NCBI GenBank assembly: GCA_964415615.1
Contig: CAYQAW010000001.1
Coordinates: forward strand, 40,593-104,592
DNA: 64,000 nucleotides
Direction of reading: 5' to 3'
Origin: an uncultured Gammaproteobacteria bacterium
GTDB lineage: Bacteria; Patescibacteriota; Microgenomatia; Daviesbacterales; UBA10151
Shown here: positions 17,474 through 52,002 of the stretch, in pieces
How the letters are laid out: each line of letters opens with the position of its first letter
Numbering within the stretch: position 1 is the first letter of the stretch
Notes under the pieces: generated by a model
Told to the model about the DNA's origin: nothing
The model's database searches: none
The model's input: the letters and a program-made list of their open reading frames with translations, nothing else
Program-made: the position numbers and the translations under genes

Positions 17474-17722
17474 TTATTGATAGTGGTCGTTTATGTCAAT
17501 AATTTCAATTTTTCCGTCTTCTGTTGTACCGAAAATTACCCTATATTTTCTATCAATGCGAAATGAATGCAATTTCGAATGTTGAAGTTTTAAAATTTCC
17601 GTATGAAGTGAGGGATATCTTGGATTTTCTTTAAATAGTCTTAGTTGCTTATTAAACTTTTTGGTTAGATGATGTTTTTCAAGAAATACAACCAGATCTG
17701 CCCGTAATGGCTTAACGTTCAT
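17474..17722 (-). CDS. type II toxin, RelE/ParE superfamily
   Basis: The C-terminus SFRIDRKYRVIFGTTEDGKIEIIDINDHYQ is the RelE/ParE fold signature. The start is taken at the internal MNVKPLRADL, which overlaps the upstream RHH gene by 11 nt. Confidence 0.6.
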   Translation of the reverse strand: MNVKPLRADLVVFLEKHHLTKKFNKQLRLFKENPRYPSLHTEILKLQHSKLHSFRIDRKYRVIFGTTEDGKIEIIDINDHYQ

Positions 17723-17999
17723 AAAAAGAAGACTTACTAAGTCCTTTAATAACGCTATCAATAAATTTCTTATTGTACTTACCTGTTTTTTCAAAATCGG
17801 CTCTGATCTCTTCTAATGGCTTGGGAACAAAAGGCTCAAACCTGAATTCCTCCTTAGGATAAGAGAGATATCTCCTGAGTATGTTTCTAATAAATTCTGA
17901 ACGGGTTGAAAAACCCTGCTTTTTAGCTTCCATATCTACCTTTTTTGCTATTTGGCCTGGTAAAGAAATTGTGATAGTTGACATAACAATATTTAACAA
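17712..17999 (-). CDS. ribbon-helix-helix (CopG/Arc-type) antitoxin
   Basis: STITISLPGQIAKKVDMEAKKQGFSTRSEFIRNILRRYL is a typical RHH beta-strand plus two helices. It sits immediately upstream of the RelE/ParE gene and overlaps it. Confidence 0.6.
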   Translation of the reverse strand: MLNIVMSTITISLPGQIAKKVDMEAKKQGFSTRSEFIRNILRRYLSYPKEEFRFEPFVPKPLEEIRADFEKTGKYNKKFIDSVIKGLSKSSFYER

Positions 18000-42788: not shown

Positions 42789-43205
42789 TTATTGCAAGCT
42801 TCTTAAATACTGTAAAAATCTTGCCGGAGTTGTTACTACGATCTTCAATTCTTGGATAATTTTATCAATCTTAAAATCCTTTGTATTATACGAAAGAAGG
42901 TATTTTGCCTTTGCTTTCTTCACACCAGCAATTATGTGAACATCGTCTAAATCCAAAGTATAATTTTTGAAGCTTTTTTTTACTTCTTTTAATTGAACAA
43001 CATTTAATTTTTCTTTGACTACTTCTGCTAATTTATCTTTATTAAGCCCTAACCGGTCGCATACCTGCTCTAATTCTTCTATGGATTTATTTGAAACAAA
43101 AGATTGTAGATCAGTTTCATGGATAATGAAATATGCTGCACCTTTATCAGATATCAACGAAGAGATGATCACATCGGAGTCTAGAAAAACTTTTTTTCTT
43201 TTCAC
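42789..43205 (-). CDS. PIN-domain toxin (VapC-like)
   Basis: 138 aa. N-terminus KVFLDSDVIISSL and C-terminus DLDDVHIIAGVKKAKAKYLLSYNTKDF are present. The acidic-residue layout fits a PIN fold. Confidence 0.6.
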   Translation of the reverse strand: MKRKKVFLDSDVIISSLISDKGAAYFIIHETDLQSFVSNKSIEELEQVCDRLGLNKDKLAEVVKEKLNVVQLKEVKKSFKNYTLDLDDVHIIAGVKKAKAKYLLSYNTKDFKIDKIIQELKIVVTTPARFLQYLRSLQ

Positions 43206-43468
43206 AGCTTTGATCTTACTCGGGAGAGTTCTCTGTGTATTTTAGGAATTTTTTTTAAATCTTCTTTCTCTGCTTTTTGCAAATCTTCATCCAGTCCACT
43301 AAAAATAAAGGATATCGAGCTTTGGGGAATACGGTAAACTTTACCGATTTTTTTAGCCACGATTTCACCACGGCTGATCAAATCATAAACCGTATTTTTA
43401 CTAAGCTGCAACATTTCAGCCACTTGCTCAGGAGTATATACTCTAGGCAAATTTTGATTACTAAACAT
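43202..43468 (-). CDS. helix-turn-helix (excisionase/MerR-like) antitoxin partner of the PIN toxin
   Basis: 88 aa. YTPEQVAEMLQLSKNTVYDLISRGEIVAKKIGKVYRI is an excisionase-type HTH. Its last codons overlap the toxin gene by 4 nt. Confidence 0.55.
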   Translation of the reverse strand: MFSNQNLPRVYTPEQVAEMLQLSKNTVYDLISRGEIVAKKIGKVYRIPQSSISFIFSGLDEDLQKAEKEDLKKIPKIHRELSRVRSKL

Positions 43469-43598: not shown

Positions 43599-43913
43599 AT
43601 GAAAAAAGTTATACTGGTTATTTTCATTATTTTACTAGTTGGATACCTCTGCACTCAAAAAGAGGATATACAATCTTTGTGTAATTTACCTTACCATACC
43701 ACCGTAGAACAATGTTCAAATGGTGATATAATTATTGATCGTGGAGCTATTAATTATGATGGCACTGAAACTTATTTAGATAAAAATGGATTTTTTCTTT
43801 ACTCACGAGGTGGCTGGGGAGCATACCGGGAAAGTATATTATATAAGCTTAGAAAATCATTTAATAATCCGATCGGATGCGATACTAAAGAATTAACAAA
43901 TAAATGTAGTTAA
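43599..43913 (+). CDS. small exported Cys-containing protein (hypothetical)
   Basis: 104 aa with an N-terminal signal/TM ([15 protein letters not shown]) and 5 further Cys. Its 3' end overlaps the fusA stop by 4 nt on the opposite strand. Confidence 0.45.
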
Positions 43914-46048
43914 TGTTCTACTCTACCAGTAAAGCCTGAGGTTTCTATAATCTTTTGAGTAATATTACTTGGAACTGGTTCATAATGATCTGCTTCCATA
44001 TAATAAGTGGCTCTACCCTGAGACATACTTCTTATAGCTGTTGCATATCCATGCATTTCTGCTAGTGGCACTAAAGCCAAAACCACTCTGGCATTTCCAC
44101 TGGTTTCGGAAGAAAGGATTTGAGCTCTTTTTGAAGACAAATCACCAATAATCTCTCCTAAAAATTCCTCAGGGGTGGTAACCTCCACCTTCATTATTGG
44201 CTCAAGCAAAATCATATCTGCTTTTTTGGCTGCCTCAGACAAGCCTAAAGAAGCTGCAATTTTAAATGCTATCTCAGATGAATCAACATCATGGAATGAT
44301 CCATCATAAACTGTAACTTTAATATCTGTCACAGGGAATCCAGCCAAAATTCCAGTATCTTCTTTTTCAATAACTCCTTTTTCAATGGGAGGAATAAATT
44401 CTCTAGGAATTGCTCCACCCACAATTGCTGAGACAAATTCCCTACCCTGTCCGCGGGGCAAAGGTTCAATCTTGAGCAAACAATGGCCATATTGACCACG
44501 TCCACCTGTTTGTCTAATGTATTTACCCTCACCCTCTGCATATTTGGTAATAGTTTCTTTATAGGCAACTTGTGGTTGACCAACATTTGCCTCCAACTTA
44601 AACTCTCTTTTCATCCTATCTACCAGGATTTCAAGCTGCAGCTCACCCATACCGGCAATAATAGTTTGTCCTGTATCAGCGTCAGATCTAACTCTAAAAG
44701 TTGGATCTTCCTCAGCTAGTCTTTGCAGGGCAAACCCCAATTTTTCCTGATCAGATTTTGTTTTTGGCTCAATTGCCAAAGAAATAACTGGATCAGGAAA
44801 AGAGATAGATTCTAAAATAACAGGAGCAGTTCCATCACATAAGGTATTCCCAGTTATAGTATCTTTAAGTCCTACTGCAGCCACAATTTCCCCAGCCAAA
44901 GCCTGATCAATCTCTTCCCTGTCATTGGCATGCATCAAAAGAAGCCTCCCTACTCTTTCATTTAATTGCTTGGTGGAATTATAAACATAAGAACCACTCT
45001 TTAAAGTTCCTGAATAAACCCTAATGTAAGTTAATTTTCCAACATGAGGATCAACTTGAATTTTAAATGCTAAAGCAGCTAAAGGCGCAGCAGGATCACC
45101 CTTTCTTTCTTCAGCTTCCCCTGTTTGCGGATTTATTCCACTTGTAACATACACATCCTGAGGTGAAGGAAGATATTCAACAACAGCATCAAGCATTGGT
45201 TGAACACCTTTGTTTCTAAGAGAAGATCCAGCAAAAACTGGCACAATTTTACTCCCAATCACAGCCTTTCTTAAAGCTTTTTTGAGTTCTGTGACTGTAA
45301 TTTCAGTTCCGTTGAGATACTTTTCCATCAACACATCATCAGAACCTGCAATTTCCTCTACCAGTTTTTCCCTGGCAACTTTAACCTCATCTGCCATATC
45401 AGCAGGAACTTCTGTCTCACTGAATTTAGCGCCTGTTTGATCGCCTTCCCAAATTAGAGCCTTTTGAGTTAGTAAATCTACTACTCCTTTAAAATCATTT
45501 TCTTTGCCAATAGGTAAGTTATAAGCTATAGCATTAGCGCCTAGCCTGTCTCGAGCAGACTGAATAGTAGTGGCAAAATCTGCTCCCACCACATCCATTT
45601 TGTTGGAAAAAGCGATTAAAGGAACGCTATATTTATTGGCTTGTCTCCACACTGTTTCTGTTTGAGATTGTACCCCAGAGGAGGAATCTAAAACAATTAC
45701 TGCTCCATCCAAAACCCGCAGGGATCTTTCTACTTCTGCAGTAAAATCAACATGCCCTGGGGTATCAATTAAATTAATTCTTATTTCATTTCCTTCAAAA
45801 AGTCCTTTTTTAACTGTCCAAAAAGCAGTAATGGCTGCAGAAACAATGGTAATCCCACGTTCGCGCTCCTGCTCCATCCAGTCAGTAACAGTAGTTCCCT
45901 CATCAATATTTCCAATTTTATAAGTTCTACCTGTATAAAACAGGATTCTTTCTGTAGTAGTTGTTTTACCAGCATCAATATGGGCTATTATGCCTATATT
46001 ACGGATTCTATCAAGTGGGAAGTCCCTTTTAGTCTTTTGTATTGCCAT
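43910..46048 (-). CDS. fusA: elongation factor G
   Basis: 712 aa. [26 protein letters not shown]... Confidence 0.97.
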
Positions 46049-46049
46049 T

Positions 46050-46271
46050 TTATCTTTTTTCTAAATCTCTTATTATCTTTTTTACCTCTTCAATTCTAAC
46101 TCTGGTTGTATCTGCATCTTCTATAGCCATAGTATAAGCTGCATTCTCGGATAAATCACCTTCAGCAGCAGCAGCGCCCTTTTTCGCCAAAATAATCTTC
46201 AGATCTTCTTCAAGCTGCGCTAGATTATCTTTCCACATCTTCAATTTTTCTTCTCTTAATTTATTATTCAT
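46050..46271 (-). CDS. GreA/GreB N-terminal coiled-coil domain-only protein (73 aa)
   Basis: [73 protein letters not shown] aligns with the GreA N-terminal domain, including the tip motif GDLSENAAY (GreA GDLKENAEY). The FKBP-like C-terminal domain is not encoded. The GGGGAGGGG Shine-Dalgarno sits 4 nt upstream of the ATG. The ORF track extends 26 codons further upstream into hairpin sequence. Confidence 0.55.
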
Positions 46272-46313
46272 AATGAACCCCTCCCCGCAGCAAGCTGACG
46301 GGGTATTCTGGTT

Positions 46314-46346
46314 CAAAAATAAAAAACCTCCCTCAAGCTGGGAGGC
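46314..46346 (-). terminator. rho-independent terminator upstream of the GreA-N gene
   Basis: The minus strand reads CCUCCC-AGCUUGA-GGGAGG followed by UUUUUUAUUUUU. Confidence 0.55.
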
Positions 46347-46370
46347 CACAAGCAGATATTATACAATGAA

Positions 46371-46574
46371 TCAGTCTACATTTCCAGCAGCAATAGCAAT
46401 ACGGTCAGCTCTGATTATATTTACAGGATCTATTGCTCTAGATAAAATTGCCGCTGAAATAGGATCCATGCGATTAAAAGCATCAAGTCTATCTCCAACA
46501 TCAGGTCCGCTCAGTTTTCCCACTACTTTTACTAGATCTATTACTGGTCTGAAAACAAGATTTTCTACTGTCAT
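46371..46574 (-). CDS. small hypothetical protein (67 aa)
   Basis: The ORF has non-repetitive composition and is followed by the terminator at 46314-46346. There is no clear RBS and I recognise no family. Confidence 0.3.
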   Translation of the reverse strand: MTVENLVFRPVIDLVKVVGKLSGPDVGDRLDAFNRMDPISAAILSRAIDPVNIIRADRIAIAAGNVD

Positions 46575-46667
46575 ATATTAATATTACCACTTCTGTTCTA
46601 CTGGATTACCGCTATCTACATATTCCATACTATATATTATATACTATTAGGCCTATTCTTAAACTAA

Positions 46668-46961
46668 TTATCTTGGGGTAAAATGGAGCTCGACTTTTAG
46701 ATCTAATGCGTCTGCCAGTCTTTTGATAAGTGATAAAGAAGGTCTGGCATTAGCATTTTCTAACCTGGAAATAACTGCTTGGCCAGTACCCATTCTTTTG
46801 GCCAACTCTTCCTGAGAAATTTTCTTCTTAACCCTGGCATCAATTATGGCTTGTATAATAGCAAATTCAGGCTGTAAATCCTCATAAGCTTTTTTCACCT
46901 TTGGATTTTGAAAGAGTTCTCGTTTCAATTCTTCAGTTGTATAATACCTTGGTTTGTTCAT
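46668..46961 (-). CDS. XRE-family HTH antitoxin (HigA-like)
   Basis: 97 aa. ISQEELAKRMGTGQAVISRLENANARPSLSLIKRLADALDLKVELHF is a Cro/C1-type HTH. It overlaps the upstream toxin-like ORF by 4 nt. Confidence 0.65.
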   Translation of the reverse strand: MNKPRYYTTEELKRELFQNPKVKKAYEDLQPEFAIIQAIIDARVKKKISQEELAKRMGTGQAVISRLENANARPSLSLIKRLADALDLKVELHFTPR

Positions 46962-47259
46962 ATTTTATATTCCTCCAAACGCTTCCTTGCAGTTTTTATC
47001 TCCTGTCGAGGAGTTTTCTGACTTTTTTTCTTAAATGCACACACTACAATCATAGCCGACTCGGCTTTACCTAAAAGTAATCGAATAGATCCAGGTCGCA
47101 GTTCCCATAAATTACTATCTAGCTTCTTTAAATATTGACTTGGCAACCTAAACCCATTCTCCTCAAATAACTCAATATACCCTTGAGCTCGTCCTTGATC
47201 TATTTCAGACAGGATGCTAAAAATTCCTTAACTCTCTTATCAGTAATTACTTTCAACAT
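46958..47259 (-). pseudogene. Gp49-like (HigB/RelE-superfamily) toxin gene disrupted by a frameshift in a T5 run
   Basis: Frame 1 reads MLKVITDKRVKEFLASCLK*. A second frame continues ...SILSEIDQGRAQGYIELFEENGFRLPSQYLKKLDSNLWELRPGSIRLLLGKAESAMIVVCAFKKKSQKTPRQEIKTARKRLEEYKI. Joined, the two frames match the Gp49-like toxin family (YIDLLEEFGPRL...LYELR...IVLLHGFxKKTQKTPxxEI). The shift maps to the AAAAA run at 47219-47223 (T5 on the coding strand). Confidence 0.55.
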
Positions 47260-47351
47260 AATTTTATGACAAATTTATCATAATTACAAGTGGTAAAATC
47301 GTTATCTAATTAGAGGGTAACCCAAATATATACCGAAGTCAAGAGAGAAAT

Positions 47352-47828
47352 TTACCAACGGAAGTGACTGAAGGCCCTATTGGCTTGGGCTGTTTTTTGA
47401 GTATCGTCTTTCTTCTTAATAGCAAGTCCTGTACCATTTGCAGCATCCATCAGCTCTGCTGCCAGTTTTTTATCAAATGAATGATATTCTTTATTGGATT
47501 TGGATTTTGCCCCAGCTAAAATCCACCTTATAGCCAAGGCTTCTTTTCTGTCACCACGGACTTCAACTGGTACCTGATATGATGCTCCTCCAACCCTCCT
47601 AGGTCTTACCTCCATTTTGGGAACAACATTTGCTATGGCTTTTTCAAAAACAGACAAAGGCTCCTGCTTGCTTTGCTCTTTTATTGTCTCAAGAGCTTGA
47701 TAAACTACTTTTTCTGCAATGGTTTTTTTGCCGGAAATCATTAGTTTATTAATAAATCTAGTTATTATCTTTGATCCATAAATTGGATCTGGGGCTAAAA
47801 TTTTTTTTGAGGCTTTTTTGCTTCTCAT
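47352..47828 (-). CDS. rpsG: 30S ribosomal protein S7
   Basis: 158 aa. MRSKKASKKILAPDPIYGSKIITRFINKLMISGKKTIAEK. Confidence 0.93.
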   Translation of the reverse strand: MRSKKASKKILAPDPIYGSKIITRFINKLMISGKKTIAEKVVYQALETIKEQSKQEPLSVFEKAIANVVPKMEVRPRRVGGASYQVPVEVRGDRKEALAIRWILAGAKSKSNKEYHSFDKKLAAELMDAANGTGLAIKKKDDTQKTAQANRAFSHFRW

Positions 47829-47830
47829 AT

Positions 47831-48307
47831 TTATGCTGCTCCTACAGCTGGGGCTGATGCAGTTGCTTTAGGTGCTGCTGCCCTAGGTACGGGTCCGCCT
47901 CCTCCTGCCTTTGTACCATATCTGGATCTTCCTTGTTTTCTGCCTACTACCCCTGCTAAATCATACTTTCCTCTGACTAAATGATATTTCACTCCTGGTA
48001 AATCTTTTACCCTTCCACCTCTAACCAGTACTATACCATGCTCTGCCAAAGAATGTCCCTCTCCTTGAATATATGCTGTCACTTCAGTTCTGTTGGAAAG
48101 CCTTACTCTGGCTACTTTTCGGAGAGCCGAGTTAGGTTTTTTAGGAGTCATGGTTTTAACTAAAGTCACCACTCCTCTTTTTTGAGGGTTAAAATCTTGA
48201 GTGTATCTTCGATCTTTGGCATTAAAACCACGCCTTAAGGCTGTTGCTTTAATCTTTCTGGCAGTATTTTTTCGTCCTTTTCTTACTAATTGATTGACTG
48301 TCGGCAT
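47831..48307 (-). CDS. rpsL: 30S ribosomal protein S12 with a 30-aa Gly/Ala/Pro-rich C-terminal extension
   Basis: [56 protein letters not shown]. The tail reads [28 protein letters not shown]. Confidence 0.93.
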
Positions 48308-48309
48308 TT

Positions 48310-51300
48310 CTAATTATCTACCTTTGCCCTCTCGTAACTTGTTGGAATCAAACGCCCAATTATAACATTTTCTTTGAGTCCTATTAATTTGTCATCTTTA
48401 CCAGACATCGCAGCATCTGAAAGTATTGATGTAGTTTCTTGGAATGAAGCTGCAGATAAGAAACTTTCTGTTTGCAAAGAAGCTCTAGTTATTCCTAATA
48501 TAACCACCTCTGCTGTGGCTGGTTCACCACCGCTTGCCAAAACCCGTCTATTTTCCTCTTCAAAACGGAGTTTGTCAATAATTTCACCAGGAAGCAAGTT
48601 AGTATCACCCTGGGTTTCTACTCTGACTTTATCAGACATCTTCCTGACAATCACCTCAAAATACTTCTCATTAATAGGCACACCCTGAGATTCATAAACA
48701 GATCTTACTTCATCAACTATGTAGCGTTGTGCAGCCTTCAAACCTTGAATTCTCAAAATTTCTTTGACATCCACATGCCCTGAAGCCAGCACTGTCCCAG
48801 CATCAATCAGTTGTCCTTCTTCTACTAGAAGGGCTGCAGTAGCAGGAATAATGTATTCCCTTTCTTCGTGTGGCTTTTGGGTAGTTTTAACCCTAACCCT
48901 TATCCCCAATTCAGTCTCAACGACTGAAACTTTACCAGCAATCTCAGACATTGGTGATGCAACTTTAGGGGTCCTGGCTTCAAATAACTCTTCTACTCTT
49001 GGTAAACCTTGGGTAATATCTAATCCGATAATCCCTCCTGTGTGGAAAGTACGCATAGTAAGCTGTGTGCCTGGCTCACCGATAGCTTGAGCAGCCACTA
49101 CTCCAACAGGGGTGCCAATTTTAACCAGTTGTCTAGTAGTCAAATCAAAACCATAACAAGCACTACAAATTCCATAACGGGCCTCACAAGTCAAAGGAGA
49201 ACGAGCTGATACTTTTACTACCCCTGCTTTTAGAATTTGAGTTATCGCCACTTCTGCTAGGATCGCACCCTTTTTGATAATTACTTTCCTGCTTTTAGGC
49301 TCTAATATATTCTCTGCAACAACTCTTCCCAGTAGCTTCTCTCTGGCGGTGGTAAAAACATCCTTTAAGATATCAAATTCCAAAAACAGTTCAGTTGCGC
49401 AATCTTCCATCCTGATAATAACATCATGAGCAACATCTACCAACCTTCTGGTCAAGTATCCTGCATCAGCTGTTTTCAAGGCTTTATCTGCTACACCTTT
49501 TCTGGCACCTCTGGCTGAAGTGAAGTATTCAAACACAGATAAACCTTGTCTGTAATTGGATTTCGTAGGCAATTCCACAATCTTACCGGTTGGATCAGTA
49601 GACAAACCCCGCATGGCAGAAAGTTGCTTTGCCTGATCTCTTGAACCTCTAGCGCCTGCTTCAACCATCATTCTGATAGGGTTTTTCATACCCAGATATT
49701 CCCAGGTAGCATTTGCCAACTCTTCTGTCACTTTAATCCAGACCATTTGTGAAAGCTGTGATTTTTCTTGTGGAGTAATTAAACCTTTGGCAGTATTTGC
49801 TTCAATTTTCTCGATTTCCTTTATAGCTCTATCCAAATAAGCCTGTTTATCAGATACAACTTTTGCATCAAAGATAGAAATTGAAATACCGGCAATAGTT
49901 GCCCCCCAGAAGCCAATAGTCTTAATATTATCTATCAGCTCTGTTGCCTTTTCCTTACCTAAAGTTTCCATTGCCCGCAGGATGATGTCACGGATAGTAA
50001 GCCCTTTAATAACTGAATTTATAAATTGCATCTCAGTAGGCAAAACTTGATTAAAAAGTATTCTACCTACCGATGTTTCTATAACTTCACCATTAATCCT
50101 GGTTTGGATTTTTTGTTGAATCCCAATTTTGCCTAAAGTATAAGCCCTAACTGCATCTTCTATGGGTGCAAAGAAGTGCAGTTTCTCACCTTCTGCAACA
50201 TCCTCAAACGAAGTCAAAAAATAACATCCCAAAGCCATTTCCCTATTTGGCACAGTCACTGGCTGAGCATTGGCTGGACTAAAAATATTTTCTCTTGCCA
50301 TCATTAAATTCTTTGCTTCCTCTTGGGCTTTCCCAGATAAAGGCACATGAACTGCCATCTGATCTCCATCAAAATCAGCATTAAATCCTGCGCAAATACA
50401 AGGATGAATAGCAATGGCATTACCATCAACCAGTATTGGGAAAAATGCTTGAATCCCTAATCTATGCAGTGTAGGAGCCCTGTTGATCAGAATTGGATGC
50501 CCTGTAATGATTTCCTCTAAAATATCCCAAACCTCAGAAGACCGAAGCTCCAAAACATTTTTTGCGCCTTTAACATTAGATGCCAAACCTCTGGCAATAA
50601 CTTCCCGCAAAACAAACGGCTTGAACATTTCAAGAGCCATTTCTTTTGGTAACCCGACTTGATCTAGTTTTAATTTTGATCCAACCACGATAACTGATCT
50701 TCCAGAATAATCTACCCTTTTGCCCAATAAATTCTGTCTGAATCTTCCCTGCTTACCCCGTAACATATCTGAGAGGGAACGGAGAATATGAGTAGTAGCA
50801 GGACCTCCCCGTCTTGAAGTCCTGGATGATGCATCTATCAAGCTATCAACAGCTTCTTGTAGCATTCTTTTTTCATTCCGCAAAATTATTTCTGGAGCAC
50901 CCAGATTAATTAGCCTGTTTAAGCGGTTATTTCTATTAATTACTCTTCTGTAAAGATCGTTTAAATCTGAGGTAGCAAATCTTCCTCCTGGCAGTTGCAC
51001 CATAGGTCGAAGGTCTGGGGGTAAAACTGGTAAAACCCGCAGTACTAACCATGCAGCAGAGATGCCAGAAGAACGCATTCCTTCAATCACCCGAAGTCTT
51101 TTTGTAGCCTTGATATGTTTTTGCCCTGTGGACTTTCTGACCTCTTCCCTCAAAGCTGCAGCCATTTTATCCAAATCTAGCTTTTGTAGAACTTCCAAAA
51201 ATGCTTCTGCTCCCATTCCTACCTGAAGAAAATCTGAAACTCCATATTCGAAAAGCTTTGAATATTCATCCTCTGATAGAAGTTTTAAAGCCACAACAGA

Positions 51301-52002
51301 TTTAACTAAATCAGATACAGCTTTAAAAATTCCTTCCAACTGACCAATTTCTACAACTAAATTATCTCTCAACTTTTGGATTTCATGTCTACCTTTTAAC
51401 TCTTTTTCCTGTGCCTCAAGTTCAAATTTTTCCTTTTCCAGTTTCTTTTTAAGACCAGTTACGTCCTTTTTGAGCTGACTTTCAAAATCTTTGATCGTCT
51501 TTTCCAAATTTTCTTTTGCTTGGGAAATTTTTGTTTGTAAATCTTTCTCTAATTTTTCCAGAGCTGCAGTTTTACCAGAGGGATCAATACTAATCACAAT
51601 ATAGGAAGCAAAATATATTACTGCTTCCAAATTTTTGGGTGAAATATCCAGTATCAGGGATAATTTGGAAGGCGCACCTTTGACAAACCAGCTATGAGCC
51701 ACAGGAGAGGCAAGATTAATATGGCCCATTCTTTCTCTTCTGACCTTGCTTTGGGTAACCTCAACTCCGCACTTATCACAAATTACTCCCCGGAATCTAA
51801 TTCTTTTATATTTACCGCAGTAACATTCATAATCTTTAGTAGGCCCAAAGATATTTTCAGAAAACAGTCCATCTTTTTCAGCTTTTAAAGTTCTATAATT
51901 GATAGTTTCTGGTTTTGTAACCTCACCAAAAGACCAATTCCTTATTTGCTCAGGAGAAGCAACTGTGAGTCTTAAACTTTCAAAATCTACTAAATCGTTC
52001 AT
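48310..52002 (-). CDS. rpoC: DNA-directed RNA polymerase subunit beta'
   Basis: 1230 aa. An N-terminal zinc finger and NADFDGDQM catalytic loop are present. Confidence 0.97.

Follow-up and report, generated by a model that had tools for sequence, protein, structure and literature searches.

The window, by which we mean the whole 64,000-nucleotide stretch of DNA that was analysed, comes from a genome of Candidatus Daviesbacteria (CPR), an uncultured groundwater bacterium, and carries a chromosomal type II toxin-antitoxin module of the higBA-like kind, consisting of a 100-aa Gp49/PF05973 toxin of RelE fold followed by a 97-aa XRE-HTH antitoxin. The module is embedded in a block, from rpoC to fusA, in which every gene lies on the minus strand (Table 1). 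The antitoxin is encoded directly downstream of the toxin, an arrangement that is the same in all orthologous loci. This toxin-first order, typical of higBA, is the reverse of that in relBE.

Several smaller features surround the module. The slot of the 67-aa ORF downstream of the antitoxin is filled in related loci by other unannotated ORFs, of 89, 103 and 113 aa. The next gene encodes the N-terminal coiled-coil of GreA/GreB alone (PF03449, E=3.2e-7), stops 1-2 nt short of the fusA start and is kept in every related locus (L004 5174-5422; L010 5066-5290; L012 5689-5913; L094 2318-2545); as public gene calls give 73-82 aa, the 99-aa GTG ORF of the window is probably over-long. A further TA-like pair (42789-43468, minus strand) occurs in the str-operon region just downstream of fusA, where the gene for an HTH_17 protein of 88 aa (E=2.2e-14) is followed, with an overlap, by that for a PIN_3 protein of 138 aa (E=5.1e-8). 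A third TA-like pair (17474-17999, minus strand) combines an RHH_1/CopG protein (E=4.3e-7) with a weak YoeB-like match (E=1.4e-4, under the Pfam cut-off); the 83-nt overlap of its listed ORFs makes it probable that the downstream start has been placed wrongly.

Table 1. Features of the toxin-antitoxin locus in the window, and position of the pair in related loci
Feature	Coordinates	Strand	Remarks
rpoC	48310-52002	-	1230 aa, intact
rpsL	47831-48307	-	intact
rpsG	47352-47828	-	intact
Conserved block	47290-47345	-	~55 nt, upstream of promoter/operator
Promoter-like hexamers	47261-47289	-	TTGTAA-17 nt-TAAAAT, directly upstream of toxin ATG; 9/12 consensus matches
Palindrome	47264-47283	.	candidate operator; 10-nt arms, 90% complementary, abutting
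Toxin-antitoxin pair	46668-47259	-	between rpsG and fusA
Toxin 5' fragment, frame A	47200-47259	-	ATG 47259-47257, TAG 47202-47200
T5 run	47219-47223	-	GAN TTT TTR = E/D-F-L; in frame, ancestral, not the lesion
Lesion	47211-47213	-	1-nt deletion between codon 16 (TCY, Ser) and codon 17 (YTG, Leu)
Toxin 3' fragment, frame B	46958-47227	-	open from 47227, TGA 46960-46958
GGAGG Shine-Dalgarno	46972-46976	-	10 nt upstream of antitoxin ATG, within toxin 3' end
HigA-type XRE-HTH antitoxin	46668-46961	-	97 aa, intact
67-aa ORF	46371-46574	-	between antitoxin and GreA_N gene; without Pfam family
GreA_N-only ORF	46050-46349	-	directly upstream of fusA
fusA	43910-46048	-	712 aa, intact
Pair in L004, L010 and L012	4001-4593 (each)		related loci
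Pair in L094	177-769		related locus
Pair in L097	586-959		related locus

The toxin gene is split between two reading frames. Re-translation reproduced both of these frames, and that of the antitoxin, as they had been transcribed in an earlier, sequence-only reading of this DNA. Frame A reads MLKVITDKRVKEFLASCLK; over residues 1-16 it has 15 of 16 positions in common with homologues such as P0004 and P0006, and its first 16 codons are the true N-terminus. Frame B, which reads GIFSILSEIDQGRAQ...EEYKI (in a longer form, GIFSILSEIDQGRAQGYIELFEENGFRLPSQYLKKLDSNLWELRPG...KKSQKTPRQEIKTARKRLEEYKI), holds the ancestral residues 17-100, preceded by five out-of-frame codons, and retains all of the invariant family columns (K46, L51, W52, E53, R55, L62, F76, K78, Q81, K82 and P84). 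Joined, the frames give a 100-aa toxin that matches Pfam Gp49 (PF05973) over profile positions 2-90 of 90 (E=3.5e-16; 59.5 bits against a cut-off of 23.9) and is covered completely by 100-aa homologues at 79-88% identity, bearing out the earlier claim of an end-to-end match to the Gp49/HigB family; an NCBIfam scan of the toxin returned no family. In a search of 5.8 billion proteins the joined translation matched 39 proteins of 97-110 aa at E<=1e-25, far beyond chance, and the best 16 homologues are 76-88% identical to it, 14 of them across the whole 100 residues. An ORF uninterrupted across the whole domain, as expected of a Gp49/PF05973 member, was not found, the stop falling after 19 codons, and the locus is a pseudogene of a member of this family, not a functional member.

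Structure comparisons agree with the assignment of a HigBA-type module, with a Gp49 toxin upstream of an XRE-HTH antitoxin, that the Pfam matches support and that had been proposed from the sequence. The best solved-structure matches of the two proteins are the two chains of one complex, Streptococcus pneumoniae HigB/HigA 6AF3: HigB (6af3_A, E=1.9e-12) for the toxin and HigA (6af3_B, E=9.9e-6, query residues 12-84) for the antitoxin, the latter a modest relationship. The fold was examined on an intact orthologue, P0003, which is 91% identical to the repaired window toxin. Its AlphaFold2 model (pLDDT 93) has beta1 at residues 4-6, alpha1 at 8-15, alpha2 at 19-38, strands b2-b5 and alpha3 as the C-terminal helix, and thus shows the elements of a RelE-type fold (beta1, two helices, a four-stranded sheet and a C-terminal helix). 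Foldseek placed this model closest to 6AF3/6AF4 (TM ~0.8), then to Mycobacterium tuberculosis HigB1 (7AWK, E=1.2e-4) and then to RelE proteins. The S. pneumoniae system (6AF3/6AF4) therefore resembles the window module in structure, at ~30% identity to the modelled toxin, and in having the toxin first and the XRE-HTH antitoxin second, whereas the window toxin has 100 aa against the 141 aa of the crystallised construct, is ~30% identical to it, is broken by a 1-nt deletion and is known here from sequence. M. tuberculosis HigB1 (Rv1955; 7AWK, 7NBU) shares the Gp49/PF05973 domain, the RelE/ParE superfamily and the fold. Unlike the M. tuberculosis TAC system, however, the window module has no SecB-like chaperone partner, is a pseudogene, belongs to a CPR host and is located in the str operon. 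According to a 2025 survey, members of PF05973 are toxins that degrade mRNA in a ribosome-dependent manner, with the toxin gene preceding that of the antitoxin (PMC11980606).

The antitoxin gene is intact, as had been stated, and its product has the same length as the orthologues, to which it is 88-90% identical, with an HTH_3 match at residues 40-90 (E=2.7e-14). Its ATG overlaps the toxin stop codon as ATGA (46958-46961). Because the gene has its own GGAGG ribosome-binding site, in place of which L004 carries AGAGGAG, the antitoxin should need no translational coupling to the toxin and could be translated without it. Upstream of the toxin, a scan for the sigma-70 consensus found four sites where 5.4 were expected from shuffles, a result no better than chance, and our promoter call is therefore based instead on conservation: synonymous sites are saturated across six loci, yet the ~36 nt that precede the ATG are almost unchanged. 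L006 has TTGACA as its first hexamer. The end of the -10 hexamer is 2 nt from the ATG, which implies either a leaderless mRNA or a true -10 (TATGAT) inside the palindrome. The palindrome itself, TTATGACAAA and TTTATCATAA (TTATGACAAATTTATCATAA), is kept in five of five orthologues, is perfect in L094 and is found again in L006, upstream of a distant homologous module at a different genomic location. We infer that it is a candidate operator of the HTH antitoxin, or of the HigA subfamily. A block further upstream, with the consensus TTGATTTCGGGATATATTTGGGTTACTCTTTAATTAAG, is conserved across the window, L004, L010, L012 and L097 although the gene upstream of it differs (rpsG, His_Phos_1 or a 46-aa ORF), and it seems to travel with the module; it had no Rfam match.

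The sequence-only reading had placed the frameshift at the T5 run, and it was the comparison with orthologous loci, which that reading had recommended, that moved the lesion 6-8 nt downstream of this run. We aligned, as DNA, the intact orthologous genes of L004, L010, L012, L094 and L097, all of which encode 100 aa. The T5 run is in frame and ancestral in all five, as GA(A/C/G) TTT TT(A/G), and the sole gap in the alignments sets GCATC-CTG in the window against GCTTCTTTG, GCTTCCTTG and ACATCTCTG (in longer context, GCATC-CTGTCTG against GCTTCTTTGTCTG, GCTTCCTTGTCTG or ACATCTCTGTCTG). In the protein alignment homologues read VKEF-LAS-LSE-IDQGR; the window is correct in frame A up to and including S16 (tcc, 47214-47212) and in frame B from L17 (ctg, 47212-47210) onwards, base 47212 being common to both codons. 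Given that the orthologues keep T5 in frame and that the gap falls at GCATC-CTG, the lesion is assigned to 47211-47213 and not to the T5 run. As read from these alignments, it is a one-base deletion that turned ancestral TCY YTG into TCCTG, in a run of at most 2-3 nt and not in a homopolymer.

Repair at the run itself was also considered. Lengthening T5 to T6 gives a 100-aa ORF with a Pfam match, but the product reads FFSILSE where the family has FLASLSE, and homologues keep T5; this version was rejected as ancestral. The proposed test, in which reads with a T4 or T6 run would restore a single ORF, does not apply at this site; the single ORF obtained with T6 has a non-family sequence.

The position of the pair is shared among relatives. 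The window, L004, L010 and L012 have it between rpsG and fusA; in L094 it is beside the GreA_N gene and fusA, and in L097 beside rpsG. Identities to the window are 85-91% for toxin and antitoxin, 84-97% for EF-G and 62-85% for S7. By these comparisons, the higBA-like pair in the rpsG-fusA region of six related CPR (Daviesbacteria-type) loci is conserved to the same degree as EF-G. For a TA module, this is an unusually stable position. Variable cargo is found in the same spacer (His_Phos_1, an HD-domain protein and a DDE_3 transposase), and in L094 the DDE_3 transposase gene (985-2052) is inserted between the antitoxin and GreA_N genes; this insertion, together with the other cargo genes, marks the rpsG-fusA spacer as an insertion hot spot in the clade. 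In the more distant relatives L015-L017 (55-65% identical) the pair is located elsewhere. The record that contains L004/L014 (GCA_964489875.1, CAZAZW010000001.1) is labelled "uncultured Gammaproteobacteria bacterium", a label that is probably wrong, since its rpoC, rpsL, rpsG and fusA proteins are 84-96% identical to those of the Candidatus Daviesbacteria window.

A second broken toxin was found in L006-L009, where a homologous Gp49 gene carries an independent A5-to-A4 deletion, the antitoxin is intact (98 aa) and the same operator palindrome is present. Toxin loss with retention of the antitoxin thus recurs in the family. In L006 (2798-3096), and likewise in L007-L009, AGT AAA AAT GGT has become AGTAAAATGG; this site adjoins pyrimidine-synthesis genes and a MazE/PIN pair, and the sequences come from groundwater metagenomes of four sources.

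To date the lesion, we compared the toxin with its relatives with the missing base masked. The repaired toxin has dN/dS values of 0.03-0.085 against its orthologues, and pairs of intact orthologues have 0.04-0.12 (dS ~0.7-2). Among the 17 family members compared, the window toxin has a single private residue; the count is 0-7 for the 15 uncompromised close homologues and 18 for P0014 because of its aberrant C-terminus. No second stop or indel was found in the toxin. With one lesion, the invariant columns kept, one private change and dN/dS as in intact orthologues, the frameshift is, by these sequence measures, very recent, nearly all of the divergence having arisen under purifying selection. 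For so recent a lesion, the intactness of the antitoxin alone would be no sign of selection after toxin loss. P0014 (110 aa; 82% identical; on a Logan contig of 1228 bp) ends in ...RLRSINYEKTKVLHNRRA instead of ...RLEEYKI, as if a 3' frameshift had carried the reading into the region of the antitoxin start.

Other public data were searched for the same strain. Two Logan assemblies, L002 (SRR12113431) and L003 (SRR4343430), which derive from other sequencing runs and a different assembly pipeline and constitute evidence at the assembly level, match the window at 100% identity, lesion included, along 1191 and 982 bp, and the L003 contig was seen in two samples. Both contigs, although from different runs, end exactly at window position 46296, in the 5' part of the long GreA_N ORF, which suggests a strain-variable site or a branch in the assembly graph. 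SRR4343430 appears to belong to SRP090828, as the neighbouring accession SRR4343435 carries SRP090828 co-assembly MAG sequence; SRP090828 is an agricultural groundwater study (PMC5383146), the only one that a literature search for the run and assembly accessions brought up. No intact allele of the same strain was present in the protein collection, in which the closest intact match is 88% identical, and a scan of JGI metagenome contigs with the pattern GAATTTTTAGCATCN{1,2}TGTCTGAAATAGATCA gave 0 matches to either allele, intact or deleted. The genome-collection scan covered species representatives, the window's own genome not being among them, and returned mostly distant Firmicutes Gp49 genes at 35-45% identity, with only L014-L017 proving useful.

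Could the missing base be a sequencing or assembly error, such that the organism has an intact 100-aa toxin and a working TA system, the intact third module of the window that had been envisaged earlier? The source is a metagenome-assembled genome (GCA_016180885.1, contig JACPAI010000002.1, which NCBI labels Candidatus Daviesbacteria), a systematic error common to all runs is conceivable, and a gene that is otherwise flawless and evolves like intact genes is what an error would leave as well. Yet the identity of two separately assembled read sets across the site makes an assembly slip unlikely, the TCCTG context has no homopolymer and so is not error-prone, and the adjoining long genes (rpoC and fusA, with rpsL and rpsG) are intact. 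Taken together, we regard an artefact as unlikely. Less likely still is that translation from an internal start yields a shortened toxin that is active, which would also leave a working TA system. Such a product is implied by the public annotation, in which NCBI MBI2085826.1 covers 46958-47224 as an 88-aa type II TA RelE/ParE family toxin with an ATT start and with no frameshift flag, and the toxin would not be null if this protein were made and folded. An alternative would be a 62-aa ORF that starts with TTG at 47146. The C-terminal 62 aa alone match Pfam Gp49 (PF05973) at E=1.3e-12 (48 bits) and keep the invariant FKKKSQKTP motif, and a 62-aa ORF is called at the same position in L006, although there the short ORF is what remains of a gene that is itself frameshifted. 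Translation very rarely starts at ATT, and the sole AGGA abuts the ATT (47224) with no spacer. On the model, the 100-aa fold is compact; the 88-aa form would be missing beta1 and half of alpha1, and the 62-aa form beta1, alpha1 and alpha2, whereas the N-terminus is kept in 39 of 39 close homologues (97-110 aa). Exact look-ups of the I-initial 88-aa ORF and of the 62-aa ORF found neither in the protein collection.

It has also been suggested that the split gene is a slippage-prone switch. In such a recoding or phase-variable allele, a -1 ribosomal or transcriptional slip on T5 (A-UUU-UUA) would yield low levels of full-length toxin. The two frames do overlap by 25 nt (47203-47227), the run lies within this overlap, a -1 shift at any point there would restore a 100-aa protein, albeit one with three residues unlike the ancestral ones, and UUU-UUA is a partly slippery sequence for -1 frameshifting. 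The presence of the run needs no special explanation, however, because it encodes Phe-Leu in all intact orthologues, and comparison with these removed the basis on which the switch had been proposed. The frameshift-stimulating context that was to be looked for did not emerge either: the first base is A, so that there is no X XXY YYZ heptamer; the 107 nt downstream fold with a minimum free energy of -17.9 kcal/mol, where shuffled sequences average -19.7 (z = +0.63) and 153 of 200 are at least as stable; and an Rfam scan of 45900-47900 at E<=1 returned nothing. Efficient transcriptional slippage needs more than five T residues. Furthermore, the length of the run is the same in all three assemblies of the strain, and no relative is split at this site, close relatives all having single ORFs. 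We consider a switch highly improbable, slightly more so than a shortened toxin. Equally improbable is a joint reading, in which the higBA pair has been long held and vertically inherited in the rpsG-fusA spacer of the str operon in a Daviesbacteria-type CPR clade and, in addition, the frameshifted allele is attenuated, supplying low-level toxin through a -1 slip on A-UUU-UUA or through the ATT start. If this were true, a ribosome-dependent mRNase would be housed among ribosomal and elongation-factor genes and be as conserved as EF-G, rather than being part of a drifting mobile module.

Overall, the evidence is very probably best explained by ordinary gene decay, in which a HigB-like toxin has recently been pseudogenised and its HigA-like antitoxin retained. 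Toxin inactivation with retention of the antitoxin, one of the possibilities raised from the sequence alone, is thus the best-supported reading of a locus with a broken toxin ORF beside an intact antitoxin. We propose that a real, recent one-base deletion at codons 16/17 broke the toxin gene in the window lineage. Translation from the normal ATG would then end after 19 codons, giving a peptide that comprises only beta1 and alpha1 of the predicted fold, so that no active toxin is expected to be made from this start. The promoter and operator palindrome, the antitoxin ORF and its GGAGG site are untouched, and with these parts in place the most likely outcome is an expressed orphan antitoxin that continues to repress its own promoter. 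Related toxins that enter the cell may be neutralised by it as well.

Degenerate TA loci with orphan antitoxins are a general phenomenon, and the window locus resembles them in having a frameshifted toxin beside a retained antitoxin, operator and promoter. It differs from them in that the event is demonstrably very recent, with one lesion and no signal of relaxed constraint, in a module otherwise as conserved as EF-G. For annotation, the 88-aa ATT call hides the frameshift, and the correct description is a frameshifted pseudogene beside an orphan antitoxin; TA censuses of CPR genomes that rely on Pfam matches would over-count the locus as a working toxin. The case also illustrates that a homopolymer near a change of frame need not be its site. 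Beyond correct annotation the finding matters little, and the conserved str-operon position of the pair in several CPR genomes is the sole feature that might repay further work. The window nevertheless offers a clean example of the first step in the decay of a TA module, with a single lesion and with drift not yet begun.
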